Shown here: positions 14,311 to 54,800 of the stretch, one piece after another
How the letters are laid out: every line of letters starts with the position of its first letter
Numbering within the stretch: the first letter of the stretch is position 1
NCBI GenBank assembly: GCA_051313645.2
Contig: JBNRSN020000003.1
Coordinates: 422,096,001-422,160,000, forward strand
Reading direction: 5' to 3'
From: Centroscyllium fabricii
Lineage: Eukaryota
Length of the DNA: 64,000 nucleotides
Notes under the pieces: model-generated
The model's database searches: none
Seen by the model: only the letters and a program-made list of their open reading frames with translations
What the model was told of the DNA's origin: nothing
Translations under genes and position numbers: made by a program

Positions 14311-15310
14311 CCTTCCTCATCTGTAACATTGCGCTTGGAACAGAAGAAAATGAAAACGCATTGAAATATGAGATTTAGAGTATTATTACACAATTAATGC
14401 AAAACTGAAATTAACAGTCAAAATAAGCATTTAAACCTCCACAAAAAAGCTGCTTGGTGAAAAAGGCTATAGAAACACAAGTAAAGTTTTTTTTTGACCC
14501 TTTAAAAAGGTAACAAAAAAGAGAAATATTATTGTGGAGAATAGTTTGACTATATTAACACCATGCAAAAAATTCAGCATTACAATGTTTTCCTGAATGC
14601 TGGGGAGCTGGGGGAAACAAAATCTACTGGTGAAAAATCACTGATTTAAAGTATTAATGGACAGCAGAGATCATTACATACAAGCAGCGTTTCTCTGTGG
14701 TGTGTGCAATCCCGTAACTCCCCCAGTCATGCTCAATTGATGTGCGTCCAGCCATCTGGGTGCGCATCAAGTCTTATCTCTCTGACCAACACTTACAAAG
14801 GACACCTAAAATAATTAGCAGACATCTGTTATAGCTCCAAATTGTGCTCTACTTCCTTGGCATTATACCAGTATGTCCCTTATTACTGGTTAAATACTTT
14901 TCCGCAATACTCTCTTCTCCATAATGATCATTTTGTCCTTCTACATTATACTTTTGGAGGAGGGTGGGGAGGGGAAAAAAGAAAGGCCCTGAATTTGCGG
15001 TGGAGGCTTCCCGGGGGGGAAATGCCTCTGATCCACAAATAAAATGCCCCTGTACCTGGTGGTTTGGAGATTCGTGGTCCTGGGCCTCACTGGGTACCCG
15101 CAGACAGAGGCCCACGTATCCCGGGGCACAGGCGGTTTGGAAGCGCCCCATGGATCACATGGGCCAGCCCAACGAATGAAAGAAGGGAATGTCCATTCAT
15201 GATTATGGGAATTCTGTATGTACAGAATCCTCAGAAGCATGAATGGGAATACCCCAAAAAATACATCTACATGTCAAATAAATAAAACGTTACATATTTA
15301 AAGTGCCATT

Positions 15311-15539
15311 TGATGTGACAAAAGCGACTTACACATCAAATACTTTAAGCAAAGCTTTAATCAGCTATTTACAGAGTTGAGAGTTTTAACATATTTACAT
15401 AGAGAAGCATTATCTCAGACTGAATAGTAGCAGAATTTATACTACTACACAGGAAGTGACATGTACAGGAAGTGATGTCACTGGAAGTTCATAAGCAGAG
15501 TTCATCCGACTTCCTGCCGGAAGTCTCAATATCATTACA
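15311..15539 (-). repeat. 3' LTR of Gypsy element
   Basis: Direct repeat of 20809-21037, immediately preceded on the minus strand by polypurine tract AGGAGGGAAGAA (15540-15551). Confidence 0.96.
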
Positions 15540-15763
15540 TTCTTCCCTCCTGGAAGATTATGAGGCAGAAATCAAATATTCTGAAGTAGATGTATGAGGA
15601 GGAGCCGCATACGTTTAAGTTTGCTCTCTTGGGTTGGTAGACTGTCTTGATGGTCAATGTCTGAGTTACTGGGCCGTTTGCGGGTCTTCGAATCTGGGTC
15701 AAATCCAACATGGCCTGGATTACCCGGCGATGGGTAGTGGAAATCATGGCTCCGTGTGCGAGA

Positions 15764-16204
15764 TCAAACAGGTTCAGAGTTGATCTGCCCTTGGTCGGGA
15801 GAAGGTATCAAGCTTGTCGATGGCCCATTGGCATTTTGGCGTGGGGCACAGGGAGGATCATGACTCCGCGTACGAGCCCCTATGGGCTCCGTGTCAGTCG
15901 AGGATTGAGCAGCATCCTGGAATGAGGTACCAGGTGAGTCGAAGCTCAGAGTGCGGGATCCTACCGGCTCAAAGGTCATTGGTGCCTGATCGGGGTCCTG
16001 AAGAGTGGTACCCAGTGGTTCTCTGGAGGTTCCCGGTAGGGTATTATCCCTAGATGACCCTCTAGGTCCTGATGGGCAGGGTGCCAGGTCCCGCAACGAT
16101 ACTGTAGACTCTCGTCCGTCAGGGTGTCGTATGTGAGCGTAGGTGGGGTTGACCTCCGTTAGTTCTACCTCGTCCACAAGAGGGTCATGCTTGGAGGTTC
16201 GGAC
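15764..16204 (-). pseudogene. Integrase C-terminal continuation beyond an in-frame TAG
   Basis: The same frame continues after the TAG at 16207-16205: VRTSKHDPLVDEVELTEVNPTYAHIRHPDGRESTVSLRDLAP, typical of a Gypsy integrase C-terminus. Confidence 0.8.
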
Positions 16205-18298
16205 CTATCTCCCGAGCAATACGGGCCCTGGAGTGGTCAGCCATGAAGGGAGTGATGCTCCATACGATGAGCGACGCTGGAAACTGAAGAACCGTTCATG
16301 AGGCGTCGTGTTCGTGGCTGTGGAAAGCAAGGACTGTATGGAGTGCAATGCATCTGGTAACACCATCTCCCATTGCTGGTTGTGTAGACCCTGGGATTTC
16401 AGGGCAAGGCGGACAGAGTTCCATATGATGCCATTATATCTTTCTACCTGGCCGTTACCGATGGGGTGGTATGGTGTTGTTTTGCTTGTCGCGATACCTC
16501 TTTCCGAGAGGTAGTCCTTAAGTTCAGTGGACATGAAAGATGGACCCCGATCTGAATGGATGTAAGCTGGCATGCCACAGAGCGTGAATACTTGCTCGAG
16601 ACAATTGATTACTGTGGAAGACAGCATATGAGAGCAGGGGAAGGCGAATGGGAAACGTGAATATTCGTCGACCATCGTAAGCAGATATATGTTCCTAGTG
16701 GACGAGGGTACTGGGCCCTTAAAATCAATGCTCAGTCGTTGCATTGGTTGTGTCGCATGTATAAGTACACCATCCGGGGGCCGGAAAAAGTGGGGTTTTA
16801 GCTCAGCACAGGTTCTGCATTCCGAACACATTTTCTTGATGTCTCCGGTTGAGAATGGGAGATTTCGTGACCTTACAAAATGTAACATACGTGTCACACC
16901 AGGATGACATAATCCATCATGAATATCTGCGAGAGTGGAGGGTGATGTAGCAGCGCAGAATGCTCGAGTAAGTGTGTCCGGGGCCACATTATCTTTACCA
17001 GGGCGATAGTGAATAGTATAGCCAAAAGAGGCCAATTCCATCCTCCACAGTTGTATTTTATTGTTCTTGACTTTGGTTCTTTTGCGGTTGTCCAGCATGA
17101 ACGCTACTGATCGCTGGTCCGTTATCAGCGTGAAGTGTCGGTGAGCTAAAAAATGGTTCCATTTTCGTACAGCCTCAATGATGGCCGTGGCTTCTTTTTC
17201 CACCGGTGGATAGTGCACTTCGGCACCCTGTAGGGTCCTAGACATGAAAGCTACAGGGCGACCTTCCTGATTGAGGGTAGCTGAGATCGCCACCTCTGAA
17301 GCGTCACATTCGACCACGAATGGGAGGTTCTCATCGATGGAGTGGAGGGTTGCTGTCTTCAAATGTTGTTTAAGGGTAGTAAAGGCTGTAATGGCCGTTG
17401 TTCCTAATGGAAATGTCCTGGCATTCAACAAAGGTTGAATTTTGTCAGAAAAATCCGGAATCCACTTCGCATAGTAGGCAAATAGGCCGAGGGCCCGACG
17501 CAAGGAAGCAGGACTGTTAGGTGGAGGAAGCTCCTGGAGGGGCCGAAGTCTTTCAGGATCAGGCTTGATGATGCCATTACCCACACAGTAGCCGAGAATA
17601 TTAATGGTTGGCTGTGATTCCACGGATTTGGTTTCATTTAAAGTCAGATTGCGACGATAAAGTGCATCCCGAAATCTTCGAAGGTTGTCGTCGTGTTCTT
17701 GTTGGTCATGGCCAGCAACCGTAATATTGTCGAGATAAGGGAAAGTGTCCCTCAAGTCTTCTTGCTTCACCAAGCCATCCATGGCTCGTTGAAAGACAGC
17801 TACTCCGTTGGTGACTCCGAATGGGAGATGGCAAAATTGATACAATTGTCCGTTAGCCTCAAAGGCTGTATATTTCTTATCCGAGGCCCGTAGGGGTACC
17901 TGATGGTAAGCACTCTTCAGGTCATAAGTTGAGAATACAGAATATTCAGCCAGTTTATTCACCATGTCATCGATACGTGGCAGTGGGTAAGCATCCAAAT
18001 CTGTATATAGATTAACGGTCTGAGAGTAATCGATACATAGGCGTTTCTTCTGAGGTTTCAAAGAGTTTTTAACAATGACGATCTGAGCCCGCCAAGGCGA
18101 TGAACAAGGTTCAATGATGTCCTCGGCCAGGAGTCGAGAGATTTCTGTATTAATGAAGGATCGATCCTCCTGACTAAAGCGCCGAGACTTAGTTATTATC
18201 GGCTTGCACTGAGGCGTAACGCTGGTAAATAACGATGGTTCGTCCAGAGAGGCTGCTGACAGTGCACAAAATGGCGTTTTGGATGATGATTTAGAGAT
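16205..18298 (-). pseudogene. pol: Gypsy pol: reverse transcriptase, RNase H, integrase
   Basis: RT motifs (IDYSQTVN, YPLPRID, DLKSAYHQ, LPFGVTNG, YLDN), RNase H (CDAS, EKE, TDQ, D) and integrase HHCC plus D,D,E (IDFKGP, HSDRG, GQVERYN). In frame with gag-PR once the insertion and one TSD copy are removed (GGA CTC ATT|ATC TCT AAA). Confidence 0.93.
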
Positions 18299-18301
18299 AA
18301 T

Positions 18302-19411
18302 GGGCCCTGTCTTCCTGTGGCCTGATTGCTGCGGGTGCGTGCAGATTTGCACCCGTCCGAGATTTTTTATTTTTTTATCTGCTGGACTTCCTGTGTGAAA
18401 TGTCGATTTTTTTTCGTGGGCAGGGGTCTGTTTTTTTTTGGTGCTTAGTGCGTTGGTCGGGTGCAGGACACGCCCCCTGAGGTCGGCTTTTTGAGACCAC
18501 GCCCCCACAGAACGCACAGATCAAAGAAAATCAAGTGTTCAACTAAAGAAAAGAACAGGTAAGGAAGAAGTTTTTCTTTGTTTTTTTTCAGTTTGTAGGA
18601 AGCTGGTCTTACAGCTTGTAAAGCTGATGGTTTTTATATTTTTTGGTGATAGGTCAAAAATCGGCGATTTCAACCCCTCGCAGCTCTCAGCTGAAACAGC
18701 TCAGCTCTCAGCTGGAATCGCGTAGAAATCGGCGATTTTTTAACTTTCACCAAAAAGTAGATAAAGCTTCATGTTTGTGGTCTTACAGCTTGTAAATCTG
18801 CTGGTTTATATATTTTTTTGTGATAGTTTAAAAAATCGGGAATTTGAACAGCTCAAATTCCCGATTTTTTAAACTTTCACAAAAAAATATATAAACCAGC
18901 AGATTTACAAGCTGTAAGACCACAAACATGAAGCTTTATCTATTTTTTGGTGATAGTTAAAAAATCGCCGATTTCTACGCGATTCCAGCTGAGAGCTGAG
19001 CTGTTTCAGCTGAGAGCTGCGAGGGGTTGAAATCGCCGATTTTTGACCTATCACAAAAAATATAAAAACCATCAGATTTACAAGCTGTAAGACCACAAAC
19101 AAATATCTCCAAAGGAATAATTTTTTTAAAAACTTTAAACCTGTTTTTTTCACTTCTCAAACCTGCCTGCACTCTCTTAAGACTGGTATTTACGTGGGCA
19201 GAAAAATGGAGGCTTCCCCACGTTGTACACCTGAATTTTGAGCATCAGAGTACAGGAAGTCTGCAGCTCAAAGTGCTTCGTGGGGAGGAAGCTGAAGCCC
19301 CTTGCCCATCAGCACAGGAAGTTCACGTTTCTGGTAAGCACCTGAGCTGCCTCCCCACAAAGCATTTTCGTGGGGGGGGCAGCTCTTCTGGAGCACAGGA
19401 AGACAGGGCCC
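18302..19411. mobile_element. Non-autonomous DNA transposon (PIF/Harbinger-like) inserted in Gypsy pol, with ~490-bp internal palindrome
   Basis: Perfect 18-bp TIRs GGGCCCTGTCTTCCTGTG (18302-18319 and 19394-19411), 3-bp TSD AAT on both sides, no coding capacity, palindrome at 18604-19095. Confidence 0.92.
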
Positions 19412-20731
19412 AATGAGTCCGGGTTTAGAACCCCCGAACTCAATGGTCAGCTTGTTATGTTGTCTTTGGAAATCTAGTCCCAGAATGATATCACTACATA
19501 GATCCTTAAGGACTGAGAGACGGGTGGAGGGATACAGGCGCCCATTAAGGGTTAAGTCCACAATACAGAAGCCCGAGATTCTAGTATTAAGAGAAGATTG
19601 GGCCATTGCAATTGCCTGGTCTGATGGATAAGTGTGCAGTTTCAATTTTTTAACGATTTGCCCCTTAATAAAGCTGTCAGTGCTACCAGAGTCAATTAGG
19701 GCATCAAAAGCATGTCCATTAATTCTGACCCTTGTGGCTGCCTGGACCAGATTCTGAGGGCATGCAGCTGTTATTGGCATGATAGCACAGAGTGCAGCAG
19801 TGATTCTAGACGAGCTCCTTCGAGTGGGAGCCTGATAGGTCCTGGCTGGTGCGTCTTGATAGGGCCTAATTGATGCACCCTGGCAGGCCCTAATTGGAGC
19901 AGCTCTGTAGGGCCTAGCTTGATTAGCTCGTGCAGAAGTTCTGGATTGGCACACCTTTGCAAAGTGCCCTTTTTTGCTGCAGTAGCTGCAGATTGCATTA
20001 CGGGCTGGGCAGAATTTTCTTGGGTGGAAGATATCTCCACAAAAGAAGCAGTTTTTCCTGGACTGCCAAGAGGCTGCTAGTGTAGGGTCATCCTCCTCCT
20101 CATCACTAAGCTCATCAGGGCTAGAGTCGTCTATGATTGGGTTCACCTGTGGCTCCTTGAAAGGTCTGCTTGAAGTTACAGCAGCACTTCGAGCTCTGGG
20201 CCACTGATAAAGATCTGAGTTTCTTTTTGCTAGATCAAGAGAGCAAGCCAGTTTGAAAGCTTTTTGCAACTCTAGGGCCTTACTCTCCAGTAGACGCTGG
20301 CGTATCAGTGGGGAGGAAATCCCGCTGATGAAGGCATCGCGGATCATTTCCTCACGGTAAAGCGCGGCCGAGGCTGCCTGAAAGTTACAGTTCGTACTGA
20401 GCCTGCGCAGTGTCTGCAGGAATTCACCAATATACTGGCCACGGCCCGGCAAGGGCCGGAGGAATCTATGTCTAGCATAAATCTCGTTGGGTGGCTTTGT
20501 ATACAGTTCTTTAAGAGCTCGGATTGCTTCATTAAAGTTATCCCAATTGTCCAGATATTCATACACGTTAGGGGATACATAGTTTACCAGTAGCCGGAGT
20601 TTAGCAGTATCACTCGCACCACATTCTTCCAGGAAATTTTCAAAAATATGATACCAGTGCTTCCATACCTTTGCGGCTGATGGCGAGTTCGGATCCAGGT
20701 CAAGAGTTCTGGGTTTGAAGAGGCTCTCCAT
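19412..20731 (-). pseudogene. gag: Gypsy gag-protease part of a single gag-pol ORF (interrupted at 19411 by a DNA element)
   Basis: ORF 19268..20731: MESLFKPRTLDLDPNSPSAAKVWKHW..., two CX2CX4HX4C knuckles (CFFCGDIFHPRKFC, CSYCSKKGHFAKVC) and aspartic protease LIDSGS. The last ~47 aa of the ORF call come from the insertion. Confidence 0.9.
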
Positions 20732-20808
20732 GATGGGTGGTTCCCTGGGTCCTCAGTTTCTTTTTGTCCGAAGGTTTCAAAAATTTTGAGCGTAGTAGCT
20801 GATTAAAT

Positions 20809-21037
20809 TGATGTGACAAAAGCGACTTACACATCAAATACTTTAAGCAAAGCTTTAATCAGCTATTTACAGAGTTGAGAGTTTTAACATATTTACATAG
20901 AGAAGCATTATCTCAGATTGAATAGTAGCAGAATTTATACTACTACACAGGAAGTGACATGTACAGGAAGTGATGTCACTGGAAGTTCATAAGCAGAGTT
21001 CATCCGACTTCCTGCCGGAAGTCTCAATATCATTACA
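20809..21037 (-). repeat. 5' LTR of Gypsy element
   Basis: Minus strand begins TGTAATGATA and ends GTCACATCA. Identical to 15311-15539 except 20918 (t) vs 15420 (c). Contains ATTAAA and a cluster of GGAAG motifs. Confidence 0.96.
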
Positions 21038-21527
21038 CCATTTAATTAAATATTTTAAACTAAAATATATTGTTTTGAAAAATAAATTTAAAAGAGGCTA
21101 AAAATAAACTAACCTTATTGTACAGGTTTTTTAATGTATAAATGATTGCTAAAAATGTATTTTAATGTTTTTTTAAACTCTTACCAGCCGTAAGAATTTC
21201 ACAGGCATTGGCTGGGCAGAAGTTGGGCAAATTGCCCCACCCCCCCACCACCACCCCCCCCCCGGGATGCCCTTTTCCCAGGGATGCGGATGATCTGTCA
21301 AGAAGTTTCTCGACAGATCGTAAGTTCCGGGTTTTCACGCATGTGCTTCGCATGCCTAAATCCGGAACTTGCGCGTGTTTTTACAGGCGCATACGCACCA
21401 GGTATGCGCCCATAGGGGCCACAAATTACGGCCCATCAGTGTTAGTTTTCCTAGGCCACAACTGTACACCTCCAAACAGCTAGCTATAAAGTACCACTAG
21501 CAAATGCATAGGGCCCGGTTGATTGAC

Positions 21528-35401: not shown

Positions 35402-37415
35402 GGCCCAGAAATTCGGCTCTGAACGCGGGAGTAGTACGCACGGAGCAGTAGGCCCATCAAGAGTGCCGGTTTCGTGCATGCATTGCGTATGCGTGCGAAA
35501 CCGGGACTTCCGTTCTCCCGAACTAAGGGGTTAAGAGGTGAAGCGCATGCGCGGGAGTGGCAGCGTATGCACATTGAACATGCGCTTTAAAAAAAATTAT
35601 ATATATATTTTTTTAAACAGGATTTTCTGTCTGGATAAGTGTGTATATTTTACACTTGAAAAAAGCAGGTGTAAGGCCTGCTTTTAACAAGGTAAGTGGT
35701 GAATTAATTCAAATTAAAACATTTTTCCCCACAGGTTTATTATTTTTAAATACTCTAAAAGGAAGGTAAGTTTATTTTATGCCCAATTAGAAAATAATTA
35801 ATTTTTTCAAAAATTTAAATTATTGTTTAAAAGTTATTTCATGTAATTTATAGTTATTTTAAAAATGTGTTTTTTAAAAATTTATTTGAAGTTTTAATGA
35901 TGTTTTGAGGCTTGTAAAATTCATAGTTTTGACAGCACTCCCTGTCAAACTTATGAATGGAGCATTCTCTGCTCAGATTGGCTCTCCATGGCCCACGTGA
36001 TCCCAGGGGACGCATCACACTGGGAAAATTGATCAGGGAGAACCAGTAGATGTGGTGTACTTAGATTTTCAGAAGGCGTGCGACAAGGTCCCGCACAAGA
36101 GATTAGCATGTAAAGTTAGGGCACATGGAATTGGGGGCAAGTTATTGACTTGGATTGAGAACTGGTTGGCGGACAGAAAGCAGAGAGTAGGAGTAAATGG
36201 GTCTTTTTCCGAGTGGCAGGCAGTGACTAGTGGAGTACCGCAGGGATCGGTCCAGGGACCCCAGCTATTCACAATATACATTAATGATTTAGAAAAGGGA
36301 ACTAAATGTCATGTCTCCAAGTTAGCAGATGACACAAAGCTGGGAGGGCGTGTGTGCTGCGAGGAGGATACCAGGAAGCTCCAGGATGATTTGGACAGGT
36401 TGGGCAAGTGGGCTGAGACGTGGCAGATGCAGTATAATGTGGATAAATGCGAGGTTATCCACTTTGGGGGCAAAAACAGAAATGCCGACTATTATCTGAA
36501 TGGCAATAGATTGGGAGAAGGGGAAGTACAACGCGACATGGGTGTCCTTGTGCACCAGTCACTGAAGGTGAGCGTGCAGGTGCAGCAGGCGGTTAAGAAG
36601 GCAAATGGTATGTTGGCCTTCATAGCGAAAGGGTTCGAGTACAGGAACAGGGAGGTCTTGCTGCAGTTGTACAGGGCCTTGGTGAGACCACACCTTGAGT
36701 ACTGTGTGCAATTTTGGTCTCCTTATCTAAGGAAGGACGTTCTTGCCATGGAGGGAGTGCAGAGAAGATTCACCGGGCTGATACCTGGGATGGCAGGAAT
36801 GACGTATGAGGAGAGACTGGGTAGACTGAGTTTGTACTCTCTGGAGTTTAGAAGACTGAGAGGGGATCTCATTGAAACGTATAAAATTCTAACTGGTCTG
36901 GACAAACTTGATGCAGGAAGAATGTTCCTGATGATCGGAGAGTCCAGAACCAGGGGTCATAGTCTAAGGATAAGGGGTAACTCATTTAGGACAGAGATGA
37001 GGAGGAATTTCTTCACCCAGAGAGTGGTGAACCTGTGGAATTCTCTGCCGCAGAGGGCGGTGGAGGCTACTTCATTCAATATATTCAAGAAGGAGCTGGA
37101 TGTATTTCTTAAGGCTAAAGGGATCAAGGTAATGGGGAGAAGGCAGGGACAGGGTACTGAGTTTGGACGATCAGCCATGATCTCATTGAATGGCGGAGCA
37201 GGCTCAAGGGGCCGAATGGCCTACTCCTGCTCCCGTCTTCTATGTATCTATGCACTAACTGCGTCGCTGAGACACGCAAGCACTGCGCACCGGCAGTTGG
37301 AGTAGGCACAGGAATGGAATTCCACACGGGCCCACAGCTCAACGGCCGGCGCGCAAGGTAAATGCAGGTTGGAGGCTTGCACACGCAGGAAGCCTCCGAC
37401 CCCAATTTCTGTGCC
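35402..37415 (+). mobile_element. Harbinger-like MITE hosting a CR1 insertion
   Basis: Ends ggcccagaaatt / aatttctgtgcc with flanks AAT/ATT; AT-rich core as in 4033-4788. Confidence 0.7.
36025..37251 (+). mobile_element. 5'-truncated CR1 (HER1-like) LINE, RT C-terminal region nearly intact (ORF 36052..37305)
   Basis: YLDFQKA.DKVPH, SGVPQGS, ADDTK, RPHLEYCVQFWSP, RTRGH, WNSLP; a frameshift near the end runs the ORF into the 3' UTR; (tatgtatc) tail. Confidence 0.95.
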
Positions 37416-53259: not shown

Positions 53260-54800
53260 GTCAGCCGTGGCTCCGCGGCAGCACTTTTTGCCCGAGTCAG
53301 CCCCACTCCAGAGACTTGAGCACCTAACTCAGGCTGATGCATCAGTGCAGTACTGAAGGAGTGCTGATCTATTAGATGTGCTGTCATTTAGATGGGACGT
53401 TAAAAGAAAACCTAGTCCTTGCTCAAGTGCAGATACAAGATCCCATGGCACTATTTGAAGAGGAGATGGGGAGTTTTCCTTGTGTACTGGCCGATAGTTA
53501 TCCCTCAACCAAAACAGATCATCTGAGCATTGATCTCATAGCTGTTTGTGGAAGCTTGCTGTGTGCAAACTGGCTGTTGCATGGGATCCAGGGCACGTTG
53601 GCACATTGGATCCAAAACTGGCTTAGTGGCAGGAGACAGAGGGTGATGGTCGAAGGTTGCTTTTGTGACTGGAAGCCTGTGTCCAGTGGGGTACTGCAGG
53701 GATCAGTGCTGGGTCCCTTGCTATTTGTAGTCTACATTAATGATTTGGATATGAATGTAAAAGGTATGATCAGTAAGTTCGCCGATGACACGAAAATTGG
53801 TGGGTTGGTAGATAGCAAGGAGGGAAGCCTCAGGCTACAGGACAATATAGATGGGTTGGTCAGATGGGCGGAACAGTGGCAAATGGAATTTAACCCTGAA
53901 AAGTGTGAGTTGATGCATTTTGGAAGGACTAACAAGGCAAGGGAATACACAATGAACGGTAAGACCCTAGGAAAGACAGAGGATCAGAGGGACCTTGGTG
54001 TGCATGTACATAGATCCCTGAAGGCAGCAGGGCAGGTGGATAAGGTGGTTAAAAAGGCATATGGGATACTCGCTTTCATTAGCCAAGGCATAGAATATAA
54101 GAGCAGGGAGGTTATGATGGAGCTGTACAAAACGCTGGTAAGGCCACAGCTGGAGTACTGTGTGCAGTTCTGGTCGCCACACTATAGGAAGGATGGGATT
54201 GCTTTGGAGAGGGTGCAGAGGAGATTCACCAGGATGTTACCTGGGCTGGAGCGCTTCAGCTATGAGGAAACACTGGACAGGCTGGGGTTGTTTTCCTTGG
54301 AGCAGAGAAGGCTGAGGAGGGACCTGATTGAGGTGCAAAATTATGAGGGGCATAGATAGGGTAGATAGAAAGGATCATTTTCCCTTAGTAGAGGGGTCAA
54401 TAACCAGGGGGCATAGTTTCAAGGTAAGCGGCAGGAGGTTTAGAGGAGATTTGTAGAAGAACTTTTTCACCCAGAGGGTGGTTGGAATCTGGAACTCACT
54501 GCCTGAAAGGGTGGTAGAGGCAGGAACCCTCAGAACATTCAAGAAGCATTTAGATGCGCACTTGAAATGCCATAGCATACAAGGCTACGGACCAAGTGCT
54601 GGAAAATGGGATTAGAATAGACAGGGCTCGATGGCCGGTGCAGACACGATGGGCCGAAGGGACTCTTTCTGTGCTGTAAAACTCTGACTCTGCATTTGCC
54701 TACATTGCAACAGTGACCACACTCCAAAGTACACCATTGGTTGTGAAGCACTTTGGGATATCCCGAGATGTGAGGGGTCATATAAATGCAAGTTGTTTCT
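53260..54800 (+). mobile_element. Deu-domain SINE split by a CR1 insertion
   Basis: 5' part 53260-53580 and 3' part 54691-54800 (ttgcctacattgcaacagtgac...gaagcactttggga...ataaatgcaag). Confidence 0.7.
53580..54690 (+). mobile_element. 5'-truncated CR1 LINE (subfamily A) RT fragment
   Basis: WIQNWL..RRQRV, SGV.QGSVLGPLLF, FADDTK, RPQLEYCVQFWSP; candidate TSD TGCAT (53578-53582 and 54691-54695). Confidence 0.93.

Follow-up and report, generated by a model that had tools for sequence, protein, structure and literature searches.

The 3' end of a tRNA reads CCA, so TGG is expected at the primer-binding site (PBS) of a tRNA-primed element. To our knowledge, self-priming has been proven for Tf1 of fission yeast only; elsewhere it has been linked with the chromovirus relatives of Tf1 and with a few lineages of plants. 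The groups named as self-priming in the excerpted literature are Tf1/sushi, Tcn1, TAR copia and possibly Skipper (PMC6317226, PMC6238403, PMC6934838, S. osmophilus preprint, PMC3601003, PMC7175516, PMC11042837, PMC4600332, PMC5371799, PMC8556966, PMC5341516, PMC5006619, PMC5443660). According to excerpts on Tf1, the primer is cut after base 11 (PMC7175516), and a DNA copy of it is made at the cDNA end (PMC11042837). For the TAR copia elements Houba and Osr-1 and the plant Tcn1 chromoviruses, self-priming was predicted from LTR-PBS complementarity, as it is here (excerpt of PMC6317226). These elements belong to another superfamily or lineage and have plant hosts, and they show that self-priming arose more than once.

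Here we describe a compact gypsy lineage without a chromodomain that carries the self-priming signature almost without exception. Judged from sequence, this clade has no tRNA site and likely uses an 11–19 nt stretch of its own LTR as the primer of reverse transcription.

Element architecture and the PBS position

The window, the whole 64,000-nucleotide stretch of Centroscyllium fabricii DNA analysed, contains a Ty3/gypsy LTR retrotransposon on the minus strand (Table 1). Gag, protease, RT, RNase H and integrase follow one another in this order between LTRs of the TG...CA type, and a polypurine tract (PPT) and a target duplication complete the Ty3/gypsy arrangement. Pfam matches to the window ORFs place protease, RT, RNase H and integrase in the gypsy order, and ESM Atlas groups the N-terminal region of the element with retrotransposon Gag. 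The two LTRs differ by a single mismatch at LTR position 120 in the direct-repeat comparison. The copy is young but broken. It is interrupted by a 1.1-kb MITE-like insertion between protease and RT and by an in-frame stop. The insertion contains a 208-nt inner palindrome (98%) and may be PIF/Harbinger-like. Two further window ORFs (36001–37305 and 53376–54359) have an RT match alone and are probably non-LTR fragments. No tRNA gene was found by ARAGORN within the 64-kb window.

Table 1. Features of the element and their positions in the window
Feature	Position	Strand	Basis or remark
Target-site duplication AATGG, partner at 15306–15310	21038–21042	-	Sequence repeat
5' LTR, 229 nt, TG...CA	20809–21037	-	Direct repeat with 15311–15539, 1 mismatch
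Perfect TATAAAT, 74 nt upstream of the arm; competing promoter clue	20933–20939	-	Motif search
TATA-like ATGTAAATA, one-mismatch TATA	20890–20898	-	Position not conserved among relatives
Predicted self-primer arm, LTR positions 173–184; terminal hexamer ATTAAA (20854–20859)	20854–20865	-	Complementarity to the PBS position
Small hairpin starting right after the arm; predicted cut site and predicted strand-transfer region	20840–20853	-	Folding; -1.3 kcal/mol, weak in this copy
Inner U5 stem, 20830–20837 with 20808–20815	20808–20837	-	Present in this copy, not clade-conserved
1-nt spacer (A) from the LTR end to the PBS position	20808	-	Offset 1 in 22 of 25 families, 2 in 3
PBS-position arm, complements the LTR arm, without TGG	20796–20807	-	Exact reverse complement
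gag (two Cys-His knuckles) and protease; ATG 77 nt past the LTR	19412–20731	-	ORF, Pfam, ESM Atlas
MITE-like insertion splitting gag-pol between protease and RT	18302–19411		18-nt terminal inverted repeats, 3-nt duplication
RT, RNase H and integrase core; RT motif YLDN at 17726–17737; in-frame stop at 16205–16207	16205–18301	-	Pfam, ORF
Integrase C-terminal remainder	15764–16204	-	No Pfam match, no chromodomain
Polypurine tract, GAA end before the TG of the LTR	15540–15551	-	Sequence
3' LTR with second arm copy at 15356–15367, no PBS behind it	15311–15539	-	Direct repeat

In the transcript, the 5' LTR end is followed by one A (20808) and then by 12 nt (20807–20796) that pair with 20865–20854. 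On the plus strand, 20796–20807 (TAGCTGATTAAA) is the exact reverse complement of 20854–20865 (TTTAATCAGCTA), and 45 nt separate the LTR arm from the LTR end. When the LTR was shuffled with dinucleotides preserved, complementarity of 12 nt or more turned up in 2 of 20,000 shuffles. The junction region folds with z = -3.25 and -3.37 in two runs. A published rule for self-priming, as given in an excerpt of PMC6317226, calls for at least 10 nt of complementarity to the 5' LTR, starting 0–5 nt past it, and for no TGG of a tRNA 3'-end site there; this element has 12 nt at offset 1 and lacks TGG. The initial annotation had reported the 12-nt complementarity, and that observation is confirmed. The ATTAAA it placed in the LTR 12-mer forms the last 6 nt of the arm. 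Comparison of 20300–21200 with the contigs of four runs finds a many-copy family in run X2 (3,169 contigs) but no starts or ends, and a loose contig end in run X1 holds a related LTR carrying an altered arm.

Self-pairing in the related families

Searching among longer proteins returned 1,035 relatives. The 120 matches listed are single Gag-Pol ORFs, 54–74% identical to the window Pol, and six of them are named, from a shrimp, a nematode, a ray, a cockroach, a snail and a leafhopper. Among the 120 listed homologues, ORF length is 1212–1350 aa in 116, two Cys-His knuckles are present in 106, and no domain list includes a chromodomain. A Pfam chromo rescan at E <= 1 also gave no match in the C-terminal piece of the window element, in line with the absence of a chromodomain claimed for it, or in six homologues. 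A search of viral contigs found no relative.

Two scans yielded 74 DNA loci of relatives (65 and 9). Before counting, 35 of the 74 were dropped for want of a locatable 5' LTR-PBS junction, mostly through 5' truncation. The other 39 junctions and that of the window make 40, which were sorted by eye into 26 families, with intact copies picked as family representatives (L022 over L011, L071 over L069). The RT-RNase H regions of the 26 families are 50–82% identical to one reference protein where covered, and related families are not independent samples. The junction is set independently by the end of the LTR direct repeat in 9 families; for the rest, the PPT, the terminal CA and the gag start served to locate it, and the helix was in view while this was done. 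In 21 of 26 families, the last bases of the PPT before the LTR are GAA, with several LTR starts uncertain.

Some loci are of interest in their own right. A member of the lineage in L007 (4094–11696) is nested in an element of Gmr1 order, with integrase before RT. At L061 (94–260), the LTR end and PBS junction occur in a tandem duplicate ahead of gag. L044 (1–400) has a 14-nt self-pairing junction and a typical RT, but the 120 homologue queries recognised no Gag N terminus there.

The self-complementarity is real and clade-wide. A perfect complement of 11–19 nt lies in the element's own LTR in 25 of the 26 family representatives, that is, in 24 of 25 related families and the window. When PBS and LTR are paired across families, 3 of 650 pairings reach 11 nt and none reaches 12. 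All copies counted, 38 of 40 junctions reach 11 nt, the misses being L069 (10 nt) and L002 (6 nt). The LTR of L002 is incomplete in its contig; this locus is among the nearest relatives of the window in the tree and counts against the self-priming reading. In L051, the arm copy in the 5' LTR is degenerate and the match is found in the 3' LTR copy only. No TGG occurs in the first 8 nt after the LTR at any of the 40 junctions, that of the window included, as the initial annotation had claimed for this copy; the Gmr1-order element in L007, from the same locus set, has an ordinary TGG primer site.

In 22 of 25 families the helix begins 1 nt past the LTR, and in the other 3 it begins 2 nt past it. 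The arm is oriented with its 3' end towards the LTR end, which is the geometry needed for copying U5. The arm itself lies 23–77 nt from the LTR end, and the 25 families have 24 distinct PBS 11-mers. Pairing is found in 25 of 25 families at positions 2–11, falls to 23, 22, 19, 15 and 13 of 25 at positions 12–16, and is at background from position 17. There is no sharp end at 11 nt, which counts against Tf1-like self-priming. In one family, 4 of 7 copies keep a mismatch at position 14, a hint that its primer is at most 13 nt long. The decay by position 17 and the position-14 mismatch point to a short primer.

The initial annotation had proposed a covariation check between the two 12-mers. In a MAFFT alignment of 17 families, 98.3% of cells are paired, 13 of 14 pairs are altered on both sides, and 60 double changes stand beside no single-sided change; none of 500 shuffles scored as high, and slid registers are 27–45% paired. 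RNAalifold recovers the same helix unaided. The cross-family control carries more weight, because related sequences can beat the shuffles of the covariation tool. Over positions 1–11 in 25 families, there are 272 Watson-Crick pairs, 2 mismatches and no G-U pair, whereas the adjoining hairpin has 13 G-U among its 88 pairs (Fisher p = 5e-9). An RNA stem kept by selection only should tolerate G-U, and a PBS recopied from its primer should lack it; the absence of G-U thus fits PBS copying better than selection on an RNA stem. Individual copies agree with this. In L013, both LTRs and the PBS are altered together at a paired base, which is what recopying of the PBS from the primer would produce. In L006, both LTRs are altered and the PBS is unchanged, as expected for an error during copying of the 3' LTR.

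In 19 of 24 families, where 4.6 would be expected, a small hairpin opens at most 2 nt away from the arm's 3' terminus, so that the predicted cut would fall at the junction of helix and hairpin. The bases after the arm are conserved as G, C and C in 16, 20 and 19 of 24 families, respectively. The inner 8-bp stem noted by the initial annotation is real in the window, but it uses the spacer A and is not a property of the clade (4 of 24 families against 3.4 expected). A duplex 3' of the PBS occurs in 11 of 24 families, with 9.6 expected. Stems were scored in these tests as perfect complements of at least 5 nt, which G-U-rich stems would escape. With counts near expectation, the inner U5 stem and a third duplex of the Tf1 type were rejected as clade features.

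Of 25 families, 15 have AATAAA or ATTAAA as the last six bases of the arm; in one the arm is cut by the contig end, and 9 carry other hexamers. A second role of the 12-mer as a poly(A) switch is plausible but dispensable. The TATA-like ATGTAAATA does lie 33–25 nt upstream of the arm, but it is a one-mismatch TATA at a distance that is not conserved among families, and it is not the sole candidate, as the perfect TATAAAT at 20933–20939 had been overlooked. A start driven by that motif would lie some 40 nt upstream of the arm, which counts against a start at the arm. A TATA-like match 25–36 nt upstream of the arm is present in 4 of 24 families, versus 1–4 in every other 12-nt window, and no enrichment of the motif was seen at any distance from the arm start or end; a TATA at fixed distance from the arm was rejected for this lack of enrichment.

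U3 holds other motifs. In the window copy, five ACTTCC/GGAAGT motifs, presumably ETS-like, lie at 20955–21022 on the minus strand, upstream of TATAAAT; the relatives are mostly without a TATA. Pyrimidine tracts with YAG that resemble splice acceptors occur upstream of the arm in U3 of L008, L016, L024, L044 and L061, and by eye in L070, L072 and L073. They reach p <= 0.05 in 5 of 25 families, with a combined p = 1e-4 by a crude score, and are weak in the window. Such tracts might be used for a spliced gag RNA, for trans-splicing or for read-through from the host, and could imply that the RNA has another 5' end. Use of the AG within the arm as a splice site was rejected, as pairing continues through the AG and 9 of 25 families have T, and one C, instead of A. 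An Rfam match to GcvB (E 0.13) fell below threshold and was discarded.

Predicted priming steps and rival readings

The helix in 25 of 26 families, its fixed register, the two-sided covariation and the absence of TGG together give strong support to tRNA-free self-priming without a chromodomain. The interpretation in the initial annotation as a whole is partly supported. Self-priming in some form is very probable, and priming from the RNA 5' end, as in Tf1, is the version we consider reasonably likely. In this scheme, transcription would start at the arm or a few bases before it, and the arm would fold back onto the PBS. The RNA would then be cut behind the terminal AAA, at the base of the small hairpin, leaving a free 3' OH beside the LTR end. 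The enzyme would probably be the element's own RNase H, as in Tf1; the acidic residues of RNase H are in place. The freed 3' end would then copy U5, and the resulting strong-stop DNA of 23–77 nt would jump by way of the sequence after the cut. The RNA would end within that same stretch, through poly(A) cleavage downstream of the hexamer. Since the hexamer ends at the cut, the strand-transfer stretch would roughly coincide with the small hairpin.

Plus-strand synthesis would copy the primer, and the PBS would thereby be rewritten from the LTR arm. The GAA end of the PPT, the 1-nt spacer and the retained terminal A would give a two-base extension at each cDNA end. HIV-1 has two-base extensions at its cDNA ends. 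Hiding of the hexamer at the 5' LTR is probably a side benefit in about two-thirds of families and not the reason for the helix.

Self-priming need not start from the extreme 5' end of the RNA. The transcript may begin upstream, for example from TATAAAT, giving a primer that carries a leader. Alternatively, the arm copy of the 3' LTR may prime, with a start just after the hexamer and the 3' region of a circularised or co-packaged RNA pairing with the PBS. Both versions draw on the fact that the arm is common to both LTRs, so that sequence cannot tell which copy primes, and all the covariation fits them equally well. The perfect TATA 74 nt upstream of the arm in the window copy favours a start outside the arm, and the bases after the arm are conserved as a start site or a cut site would be. 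A long primer, however, would leave plus-strand copying no natural stop at the PBS boundary, and pairing has sunk to background by position 17. In addition, the families share no conserved TATA upstream of the first base behind the arm (2–3 per scanned window), and a local loop of 24–78 nt would form first if the arm is transcribed at the RNA 5' end. We regard self-priming from elsewhere than the 5' end as rather unlikely. An independently evolved animal-wide system unlike that of Tf1, in which R starts directly behind the hexamer, a 3' LTR primer is cut at the hexamer end, the PBS is rewritten in each cycle and the RT carries Asn where a catalytic Asp is expected, seems distinctly improbable.

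The remaining readings deny the helix a priming role. It could act as a poly(A) switch only, hiding the hexamer of the 5' LTR while another, unseen primer is used; the hexamer lies within the arm in 15 of 25 families, and the partner strand exists solely behind the 5' LTR; the arm at the 3' LTR folds differently. Yet the helix is kept in the 9 families without a canonical arm hexamer, occlusion requires neither the fixed 1-nt register nor the absence of G-U, and no alternative primer site is left beside the LTR end, making this reading very unlikely. Priming by a host tRNA half or another small RNA, the LTR match being a secondary copy of the site, has a precedent in the half-tRNA priming of copia-type elements, and the PBS core is loosely conserved. 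In the excerpt of the plant survey PMC6317226, however, that mode is reported for Ty1/copia lineages only, and the 25 families have 24 different 11-mers that match their own LTR and almost never that of another family. Such priming is extremely doubtful. The same low standing falls to a by-product at the DNA level, in which template switching between inverted repeats keeps the arms identical. Such switching would likewise remove G-U pairs and give concerted changes, but G-U pairs persist in the adjoining hairpin, the register is fixed at precisely the spot required for primer binding, and no second primer site is apparent.

The RT active site and comparison with known elements

The RT motif of the window element is YLDN. 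Among the 120 listed homologues, which are uninterrupted, the motif ends in DN in 97, DD in 21 and another pair in 2, and its fourth residue is N in 17 of the 23 family representatives in which the motif is covered. In Ty3, the D214N mutant still polymerises in vitro, at lower processivity, but no longer transposes (excerpt of PMC5371799); in this lineage, YxDN is the common natural state. No compensating residue stood out between the YxDN and YxDD sequences. Self-pairing occurs with both motifs, so the two traits are not tied, and a natural YxDN polymerase, with the change that blocks Ty3 transposition, poses a question separate from priming. Among PDB structures, Ty3 (7q5b, 4ol8) also gives the best match to the RT-RNase H region (E 3.6e-58). 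It is tRNA-primed and has YLDD, whereas this lineage has no tRNA site and mostly YxDN.

A quick tree sets the lineage apart from three Gmr1-order outgroups with a support of 100, on long branches; L035, L073 and L070 are left out for short coverage. Cigr-1, with its short LTRs, two Gag knuckles and a single ORF of about 1,210 aa, may resemble this lineage. A circumstantial case, drawn from host overlap and these general features, links the lineage with the Cigr-1 clade of the Mag branch. The supplement of PMC6238403 places the Cigr-1 clade (LTR/Gypsy-Cigr) under the Mag branch, and an excerpted account describes Cigr-1 as a large Gypsy clade in Biomphalaria glabrata, where this lineage has an 18-protein cluster. 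The words 'PBS' and 'primer' are absent from the main texts of PMC6238403 and PMC8556966. In the literature searched by title and the start of the abstract, no account of self-priming in this lineage was met; that scope leaves out the original Cigr-1 paper, Repbase and most subscription journals, and an earlier description is possible.

If self-primed, these elements would be independent of host tRNAs and would lack the site targeted by tRNA fragments. Annotation tools that require a tRNA site would miss or mislabel them. The G-U-free covariation offers a sequence-only sign of a PBS recopied from its primer.

The closest described systems are Tf1 and Tf2 of Schizosaccharomyces pombe, Tj1, Tosmo/Tcry and the wider Tf1/sushi group, which are alike in their Ty3/gypsy domain order. 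In excerpts of the sources, that group shares with this lineage a PBS complementary to its own LTR, with a primer of about 11 nt (PMC7175516, bioRxiv 10.1101/2022.12.06.519325, PMC4600332, PMC5341516), and a predicted RNase H cut. Unlike the Tf1/sushi group, this lineage has no chromodomain, its RT motif is mostly YxDN, and its arm ends in a poly(A) hexamer in most families, 23–77 nt from the LTR end. The three-duplex 'pretzel' of Tf1 (excerpt of bioRxiv 10.1101/2022.12.06.519325) is not found here, and a small hairpin follows the arm instead. With neither a chromodomain nor the pretzel found, the lineage is not filed in Tf1/sushi. Its fold differs from that of Tf1, and the clade thus offers a test of which RNA features the priming cut needs.
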